Part shown: positions 319 to 1,106 of the stretch, in pieces | How positions within the stretch are numbered: the stretch's first letter is position 1 | Layout: every line of letters begins with the position of its first letter | The notes under the pieces: model-generated | What the model was told of the DNA's origin: nothing | The model's input: only the letters and a program-made list of their open reading frames with translations | Database searches by the model: none | Program-made: the position numbers and the translations under genes | From: Escherichia coli | GTDB taxonomy: Bacteria > Pseudomonadota > Gammaproteobacteria > Enterobacterales > Enterobacteriaceae | Length of the DNA: 41,323 nucleotides | NCBI RefSeq assembly: GCF_003334785.1 | Contig: NZ_QOWV01000025.1 | Reading direction: 5' to 3' (one strand)

Positions 319-873
319 ATGTCTGATGTTTTACGCCCATACCGCGATCTTTTTCCACAAATCGGTCAGCGCGTAATGATCGACGATAGCAGTGTCGTGA
401 TTGGTGACGTTCGTCTGGCTGATGATGTGGGGATCTGGCCGCTCGTTGTGATTCGTGGAGATGTACATTATGTACAGATCGGAGCACGCACCAATATCCA
501 GGATGGCAGTATGTTGCATGTCACTCATAAATCCTCGTACAACCCAGATGGCAACCCATTAACCATTGGCGAAGATGTCACTGTTGGTCACAAGGTGATG
601 CTCCACGGCTGCACCATTGGCAATCGAGTTTTGGTTGGGATGGGCTCAATTTTACTTGATGGCGCAATAGTAGAAGATGATGTGATGATTGGTGCGGGTA
701 GTCTGGTCCCACAAAATAAACGGCTGGAGAGCGGATATCTGTATCTCGGTAGCCCCGTCAAACAGATCCGCCCGTTAAGTGATGAAGAGAAGGCTGGGTT
801 ACGCTATTCCGCGAATAATTACGTGAAATGGAAGGACGAATATCTGGATCAGGGTAACCAGACCCAGCCTTGA
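319..873 (+). CDS. yrdA: Hexapeptide-repeat (gamma-carbonic-anhydrase-like) protein YrdA, 184 aa
   Basis: Track ORF 103..873 trimmed to in-frame ATG at 319 (MSDVLRPYRDLF...); the 5' part of the track ORF lies over the rrn promoter region. Confidence 0.85.
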   Translation: MSDVLRPYRDLFPQIGQRVMIDDSSVVIGDVRLADDVGIWPLVVIRGDVHYVQIGARTNIQDGSMLHVTHKSSYNPDGNPLTIGEDVTVGHKVMLHGCTIGNRVLVGMGSILLDGAIVEDDVMIGAGSLVPQNKRLESGYLYLGSPVKQIRPLSDEEKAGLRYSANNYVKWKDEYLDQGNQTQP

Positions 874-1106
874 TCATCTTCACTTTGTTCCTGAATTAAG
901 TTTTCCGCTTCTTCTTCCAGGTCCCAGCGATGCTGACGAAAACTCGCTAACCACTGTTCTGGCGTATCTCCAGTAAAGCGATACGCCAGACTCTCGCCAG
1001 AGATCGCGCATGTCAGTTGCATACCATTCACGAGAGCGGGAAAACATACACATTTTTTATTCTCGTCCCACTCTTCCCTGTCCGGAAACTGGATGGCCTG
1101 ATTCAC
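849..1106 (-). CDS. yrdB: Small DUF1488-type protein YrdB, 85 aa
   Basis: Track [21 protein letters not shown]...; start overlaps aroE stop by 4 nt; 3' end overlaps yrdA 3' end by 25 nt. Confidence 0.8.

Follow-up and report, generated by a model that had tools for sequence, protein, structure and literature searches.

A conserved 25-nt tail-to-tail coding overlap of yrdA and yrdB at the end of the yrdD-tsaC-aroE-yrdB operon

In Escherichia coli the gene yrdB overlaps its neighbors at both ends, that is, its start shares 4 nt with the stop of aroE, on the same strand, and its 3' end shares 25 nt with the 3' end of yrdA, which is read in the opposite direction. Such an arrangement is of an ordinary kind; it is found in the annotation, and the overlap of its transcripts has been reported before. 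What is added here is that the yrdA/yrdB junction is phase-locked, that its 25 nt are fixed in Enterobacteriaceae, that the tail of YrdA looks passive, and that the overlap's length needs no special explanation. With good confidence, then, we view the junction as an ancestral, tail-to-tail coding overlap of the ordinary sort, located at an operon's end, along with an RTGA stop/start fusion and probable Rho-type transcript ends.

Geometry, the reality of both genes, conservation, phase lock, and covariation are results of the present analysis, and the operon and the transcript overlap are taken from the literature. What we infer is that translation of aroE and yrdB is coupled and that Rho ends the transcripts, as well as whatever regulatory consequence the yrdA/yrdB overlap might have. 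As a whole the locus serves as a textbook case of compact-genome features, i.e., a 4-nt stop/start overlap plus a tail-to-tail coding overlap, both of them well conserved.

Arrangement of the Two Overlaps

The term window is used here for the whole stretch of E. coli DNA that was analyzed, 41,323 nt in length. Within it, aroE and yrdB form a stop/start-overlap pair, i.e., a stop and a start on the same strand that share nucleotides, in this case as GTGA. The genes yrdA and yrdB form instead a convergent overlapping pair, with coding sequences on opposite strands, 3' ends in common, and both genes genuine (Table 1). That the yrdB start overlaps the aroE stop by 4 nt and that yrdB and convergent yrdA overlap by 25 nt at their 3' ends was the original prediction for this locus, and both lengths prove to be exact upon sequence reading and translation. 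As annotated by RefSeq/PGAP, an identical E. coli chromosome has the same geometry (locus L001, with coordinates equal to window positions offset by 1251: yrdA 1570-2124, yrdB 2100-2357, aroE 2354-3172). The aroE product is recognized by NCBIfam NF001310, at 417 bits versus a cutoff of 221.

Table 1. Window positions of the features considered
Feature	Position	Strand	Remarks
yrdA coding sequence	319..873	+	184 aa; stop TGA 871-873; ORF/translation, RefSeq
yrdB coding sequence	1106..849	-	85 aa; GTG start 1106-1104; stop TGA 851-849
aroE coding sequence	1921..1103	-	272 aa, shikimate dehydrogenase; stop TGA 1105-1103
tsaC	1926..2498	-	upstream gene of the operon; annotation
yrdD	2503..3045	-	upstream gene of the operon; annotation
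Tail-to-tail coding overlap	849..873	both	25 nt; codon tables; TCA-N19-TGA in 76 loci
GTGA stop/start overlap, aroE/yrdB	1103..1106	-	sequence reading
AGGAGG, Shine-Dalgarno (SD)-like hexamer	1117..1122	-	within the Q-E-E codons of aroE; yrdB GTG 10 nt downstream; CAGGAGGAATTGTCCGCGTGA
Continuation of yrdA transcript, untranslated, antisense to yrdB	874..1000	+	24 C versus 12 G in first 80 nt
Continuation of aroE-yrdB transcript, untranslated, antisense to yrdA	610..848	-	up to 28 C versus 8 G per 80 nt
arfA	~9514-9732	-	convergent with mscL; 4-nt coding overlap, 9514-9517
mscL	~9107-9517	+	convergent with arfA

Positions 250-2000 of the window are matched in 5,426 of 5,426 complete E. coli genomes, many at 100% identity, with yrdA, yrdB, aroE, and tsaC being the features annotated in those matches. 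A 66-nt stretch covering the junction is present in 5,401 of the 5,426. With E. coli L6-21 (NZ_CP123963.1 455012-457538), the match to 250-2000 comes in two pieces, between which is found an IS1A-family element.

Read by codon, the + strand at 847-873 is GAT CAG GGT AAC CAG ACC CAG CCT TGA, which is D177-P184 of YrdA followed by stop, and the - strand at 875-849 is GAT CAA GGC TGG GTC TGG TTA CCC TGA, which is D78-P85 of YrdB, likewise followed by stop. The 25 nt proper thus encode YrdA Q178-P184 plus stop in the one direction and YrdB Q79-P85 plus stop in the other. Third codon positions in yrdA fall on third codon positions in yrdB, a configuration for which the term used by Lillo & Krakauer (PMC2174442) is phase 123:213.

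In this phase the antisense frame carries 0.036 stops per codon, as determined across the window's 60 coding sequences, and one would therefore expect seven open codons in 77% of cases (P=0.77 for seven or more open antisense codons). The notion that a length of 25 nt might be improbable in itself was considered and, given that value, dropped. The length of the overlap, that is, is unremarkable, and what is non-random is the conservation of its geometry. Absent the TGA of yrdA, the next stop would result in a 46-nt overlap, as is found in Pantoea. Overlaps are common in the window as a whole. There are five same-strand overlaps of 4 nt and three of 1 nt, and of three convergent junctions there are two with shared coding nucleotides, namely arfA/mscL (4 nt) and yrdB/yrdA (25 nt).

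Conservation and Phase Lock

Conservation in related genomes was considered first within the Enterobacteriaceae, using one genome per species and the best 80 of 385 matches. The genera represented include Escherichia, Citrobacter, Salmonella, Klebsiella, Raoultella, Kosakonia, Enterobacter, Kluyvera, Siccibacter, and Franconibacter, among others. In 75 of these 80 species the overlaps are exactly 4 nt and 25 nt. As to the exceptions, two species possess a yrdA stop that is two codons earlier, giving 19 nt, and in Siccibacter turicensis the yrdA stop comes later, with a resulting overlap of 40 nt. In a Superficieibacter sp. (L019) the aroE stop is lost, with the frame continuing 94 nt into yrdB, and in Kluyvera genomosp. 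3 (L058) yrdA is interrupted after approximately 109 codons. The latter two disruptions could be real mutations or could be assembly errors. Neither a different yrdB stop nor a shorter yrdA, either of which would have spoken against the 25-nt overlap, is what is seen. Both stops are at the same position in 76 loci.

Beyond the Enterobacteriaceae, aroE-yrdB facing yrdA is a gene order retained in all of the distant relatives named in this paragraph. The upstream run of dprA-smg-yrdD-tsaC is retained as well in Pantoea, Edaphovirga, Rouxiella, Limnobaculum, Plesiomonas, and Edwardsiella, and in Vibrio aroE is preceded by tsaC and a coproporphyrinogen oxidase gene. The junction itself, however, varies in length outside of the family. 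The overlap is 46 nt in Pantoea stewartii, 28 nt in Edwardsiella tarda, 25 nt in Rouxiella aceris, 13 nt in Edaphovirga cremea, and 4 nt in Vibrio fortis (as TTAA), and there is instead an 11-nt spacer in both Limnobaculum and Plesiomonas.

These junction values, along with those of the exceptions above (i.e., 46, 40, 28, 25, 19, 13, 4, and -11), are without exception 1 modulo 3. Between yrdA and yrdB the relative phase therefore has never changed, and their third codon positions therefore have always been opposed. Such a series fits with junction evolution by stop-codon shifts and in-frame insertions or deletions only, so far as can be judged from these sequences, and would have led from an 11-nt spacer or 4-nt overlap, as seen in distant relatives, to the fixed 25 nt of the Enterobacteriaceae. 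Viewed more generally, a series from -11 to 46 nt in a single phase indicates that overlaps can arise by stop-codon drift.

A metagenomic taxon (L086 and L087) differs in both respects. There the yrdB homologue is found 76 nt after aroE rather than in a 4-nt overlap with it, and no yrdA homologue is seen beyond yrdB, though L086 extends approximately 1.4 kb past yrdB.

Surveys of convergent overlaps provide a basis for comparison. Lillo & Krakauer, 2007 (PMC2174442), described 58 convergent overlap pairs in E. coli. As with surveyed pairs generally (PMC2174442, PMC2478687), yrdA and yrdB are two genuine genes sharing 3' ends, and the origin by stop-codon shift described in those surveys fits the same-phase series found here (-11, 4, 13, 19, 25, 28, 40, 46). 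Unlike most convergent overlaps of at least 5 nt, the yrdA/yrdB overlap is in the least frequent phase, with wobble facing wobble; phase 123:213 constitutes 18% of such overlaps (PMC2174442). The yrdA/yrdB overlap also is conserved over an unusually wide taxonomic span, whereas Palleja et al., 2008 (PMC2478687), found that most possibly real convergent overlaps of more than 60 bp are conserved in very close species only.

Mutual Constraint of the Two C-Termini

With no intergenic room between yrdB and convergent yrdA, the last seven codons plus stop of yrdA are antisense to those codons which specify the C-terminal beta-strand of YrdB (G80-W-V-W-L). That the sharing of DNA constrains both sequences had been claimed in the original prediction, and this holds, as can be seen from the covariation across the 76 loci possessing a 25-nt overlap. 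In these the overlap has the form TCA-N19-TGA, YrdB ends in QGW[VI]WL[SP], and YrdA ends in Q[DEG][NS]Q[TI]QP. Two pairings are forced: V82I in YrdB invariably is accompanied by T182I in YrdA, and the two Trp residues of YrdB, Trp being specified by a single codon, fix CAx (Gln/His) codons in YrdA. The constraint nevertheless is mild, as each gene has its third codon positions opposite those of the other. Entropy at third positions is only slightly lower within the overlap (0.96) than in the flanks (1.12 and 1.30). With frames locked and third positions opposed, the cost to each gene of the other's presence is kept low.

The two termini do not appear to be equal partners. The C-terminal strand of YrdB is conserved also where the overlap is absent, as seen in an alignment of 26 homologues, and the YrdA tail beyond the invariant Y175-L176 ranges from 2 to 13 aa across taxa. 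The YrdA tail looks like a passive read-out of yrdB antisense. One partner of an overlap, that is, can be dictated by the other, here the YrdA tail by the YrdB C-terminal strand, with phase locked once the overlap has formed. The strict, family-wide fixation of 25 nt could also reflect selection on the overlap itself.

Transcript Ends and Antisense Overlap

The operon yrdD-tsaC-aroE-yrdB has been named as such (PMC4421995), a 2025 preprint remarks on conservation of the gene cluster, and yrdB would be the operon's last gene. In a promoter scan of window positions 1-3200, nothing promoter-like turned up between aroE and yrdB. In a standard scan, no intrinsic terminator is predicted near the yrdA/yrdB junction on either strand, and a lenient scan provides only weak hairpins, at ~720 and ~255 on the - strand and at ~1476 on the + strand; no intrinsic terminator is found on the + strand between 874 and 1475. 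A search of Rfam at a permissive threshold likewise returned nothing across the junction. By way of comparison, a rho-independent terminator is found in only 20% of the genes participating in E. coli convergent overlaps (PMC2174442).

As no intrinsic terminator fits at the junction, each transcript must enter the other gene, and the two transcripts therefore must overlap. Full-length yrdA and yrdB mRNAs are complementary over at least 25 nt. The original prediction had it that antisense overlap of the transcripts is guaranteed, and this follows logically so long as both genes are transcribed to their stops. It is in agreement as well with published data, since yrdA-yrdB is included in the 165 convergent excludons that ExcludonFinder (NAR 2025, PMC12288877) gives for E. 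coli MG1655, these being coverage-based calls requiring overlap in at least 50% of 58 RNA-seq transcriptomes.

How these transcripts end may be suggested by base composition. Past its stop the yrdA transcript would run, untranslated, into a C-rich, G-poor stretch which is a predicted zone of Rho-dependent termination, and the aroE-yrdB transcript would do so into a similarly C-rich, G-poor stretch, a predicted zone of Rho loading and termination (Table 1). Each transcript, probably Rho-ended within the partner gene, would thereby come to possess a 3' end that is complementary to that of the other, i.e., as a convergent ‘excludon’.

Whether such complementarity serves a function is a separate issue. 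It may be that yrdA-yrdB is an excludon in the full sense, i.e., with convergent transcription and RNase III action on the 3' duplex rendering yrdA and yrdD-tsaC-aroE-yrdB antagonistic, or else with the arrangement shielding the promoters of the adjacent rRNA operon, rrnD. We consider this to be unlikely. It is in keeping with the published excludome (PMC12288877), as too with the lack of a terminator between yrdA and yrdB and with the retention of convergent adjacency from Vibrio to E. coli. The contigs of most species, in addition, stop approximately 0.8-1.1 kb past yrdB, which fits with an rRNA operon being located by yrdA. There also is precedent in the same window, since arfA antisense RNA together with RNase III regulates mscL (PMC10070815), and mscL-arfA is similarly listed as an excludon in PMC12288877. 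The overlap's length, however, is not conserved outside of the Enterobacteriaceae, with an 11-nt spacer in two lineages, its 25-nt conservation is fully explained by coding constraint on the YrdB C-terminal strand, and that length is no different from chance expectation.

A more far-reaching version has the phase-locked junction as a selected antisense module, retained tail-to-tail from the Vibrio/Enterobacterales ancestor onward and frozen at 25 nt in the Enterobacteriaceae, with YrdA inversely coupled to tsaC-aroE-yrdB through obligatory convergent transcription and the action of Rho or RNase III, and perhaps with rrnD being shielded, and this we regard as rather improbable. Were a regulatory role real, then expression of a t6A/shikimate operon would be tied to that of an uncharacterized gamma-carbonic-anhydrase-like protein whose gene adjoins an rRNA operon. 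A selected regulatory role, whether as excludon or as rrnD insulation, nonetheless has no specific support. A paper mapping RNase III sites mentions, for this locus, only a site in the rrsD-yrdA leader.

The ordinary, ancestral overlap differs somewhat from most of the listed excludons. It resembles most E. coli MG1655 excludons in its short or absent intergenic region, but most of those listed in PMC12288877 overlap in 3' untranslated regions only, with a mean intergenic distance of 95 nt. In yrdA-yrdB it is instead the coding sequences which overlap, so that transcript overlap is unavoidable rather than a matter of a leaky terminator. For 3' antisense crosstalk in which RNase III takes part, the closest case to have been worked out is arfA/mscL, likewise a convergent overlap of coding sequences, though of 4 nt rather than 25 nt, and there the regulation was demonstrated by experiment (PMC10070815).

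A short distance upstream of where yrdA starts, the - strand has a weak hairpin at ~255-290 (dG approximately -9 kcal/mol) and, following it, TTTTAGTA. Speculatively, it might end operon read-through that has continued past all of yrdA, before rrnD P1.

Starting yrdB at the End of aroE

At its other end, yrdB has its start fused to the aroE stop as RTGA, such that ribosomes finishing aroE could reinitiate on yrdB. RTGA is kept in 79 of the 80 Enterobacteriaceae species, the sole exception being the genome without an aroE stop, and the yrdB start codon is ATG in 46 of these species and GTG in 34. The AGGAGG within aroE could permit direct initiation on yrdB as well. An SD-like core is found 8-11 nt upstream of yrdB in 57 of the 80 species, and none is seen in the remaining 23, suggesting that any component of direct initiation is not universal. 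The stop/start overlap, that is, is kept more strictly than is the SD (79/80 versus 57/80).

Huber et al., 2019 (PMC6728339), found termination-reinitiation coupling in four of five tested E. coli stop/start-overlap pairs. The aroE-yrdB pair is similar to those in its architecture, having a same-strand RTGA plus an internal SD. It differs in being outside of the tested set and, in E. coli, in employing GTG instead of ATG. By analogy, translational coupling of aroE and yrdB is probable.

YrdA and YrdB as Proteins

YrdA is a gamma-carbonic-anhydrase-like, left-handed beta-helix protein, and by sequence it belongs among hexapeptide-repeat proteins, both in terms of family and of solved structures. 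Residues 2-184 are those of the deposited sequence of PDB 3TIO (‘Protein YrdA’) but for one substitution (R6H), with that deposited sequence running to P184, and 3R3R, a Salmonella YrdA homologue, is of the same length. NCBIfam NF050158 matches YrdA with E=1.7e-48 but at 164 bits, which is under the equivalog cutoff of 250. An AF2 model of YrdA is poor (pLDDT 66; shallow alignment), and disorder of the YrdA tail rests on its length variation.

With YrdB, residues 5-84 match Pfam DUF1488 (PF07369) at E=1.7e-33 over model positions 1-82 of 82, making it a member of that family, and its residues 1-82 align with a solved homologue, PDB 2GPI, the sequence of which opens with MNQSIIF. There is no NCBIfam model for YrdB, and only some 160 representatives of its family are found among 1.84 billion representative proteins searched, with those that are full-length mostly 84-91 aa and aligned from residue 1. 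Among 26 aligned homologues, the most distant of them at 35% identity, there is no variation in M1-N2-Q3 or in G80, from which it follows that the GTG at 1106 is the yrdB start and that the C-terminus is part of the domain. The AF2 model of YrdB has a pLDDT of 93.4 and places a beta-strand at residues 81-83 (pLDDT ~96), i.e., within the overlap. The gene is transcribed, with a response to antimicrobial peptides (PMC4006907). A start instead at the internal Met29 was considered and is ruled out by the N-terminal conservation seen across the 26 homologues.

That the overlap is an artifact of annotation, whether with one coding sequence shorter than called or with yrdB not genuine or started at Met29, is scarcely credible and effectively refuted already, for while yrdB is small, uncharacterized, GTG-started, and without an NCBIfam model, and while long overlaps in databases frequently are misannotations (PMC2478687), both stops are unambiguous and at constant positions in 76 loci, the sequence deposited with the YrdA crystal structure reaches P184, DUF1488 spans YrdB 5-84 with MNQ invariant in 26 homologues and 2GPI aligned from residue 1, and convergent overlaps are less prone to annotation error as start misprediction there is irrelevant (PMC2478687).

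Neighboring Features

At its left end the window opens within the promoter/leader region of rrnD, just past which comes the 16S gene, and the yrdA promoter consequently is divergent from the rRNA operon. A TTGACT-16-TAATAT promoter, which is rrn P2-like, is found at 57..30 on the - strand, and bases 1-213 match Rfam Ysr197 (rrn leader) below the gathering score. Since the rrnD promoters lie beyond yrdA, aroE-yrdB read-through across yrdA would head into rrnD P1/P2.

An open reading frame at 103-873 on the + strand represents a GTG-started extension of yrdA, 256 aa in length, that runs across the rrnD promoter region. The ‘EcoCAgamma’ expressed in PMC7470111 is of 771 nt and 256 aa, with 72 extra N-terminal residues, and given this equality in size it probably is the same open reading frame. 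The extension is absent from both crystallized YrdA and RefSeq annotation, and for that reason probably represents a wrong start.

A further same-strand overlap, of dprA and smg, is found at ~3519-3547 on the - strand (29 nt; 37777-37805 of locus L093). It is present also in distant relatives, e.g., L082, L084, L090, and L091.
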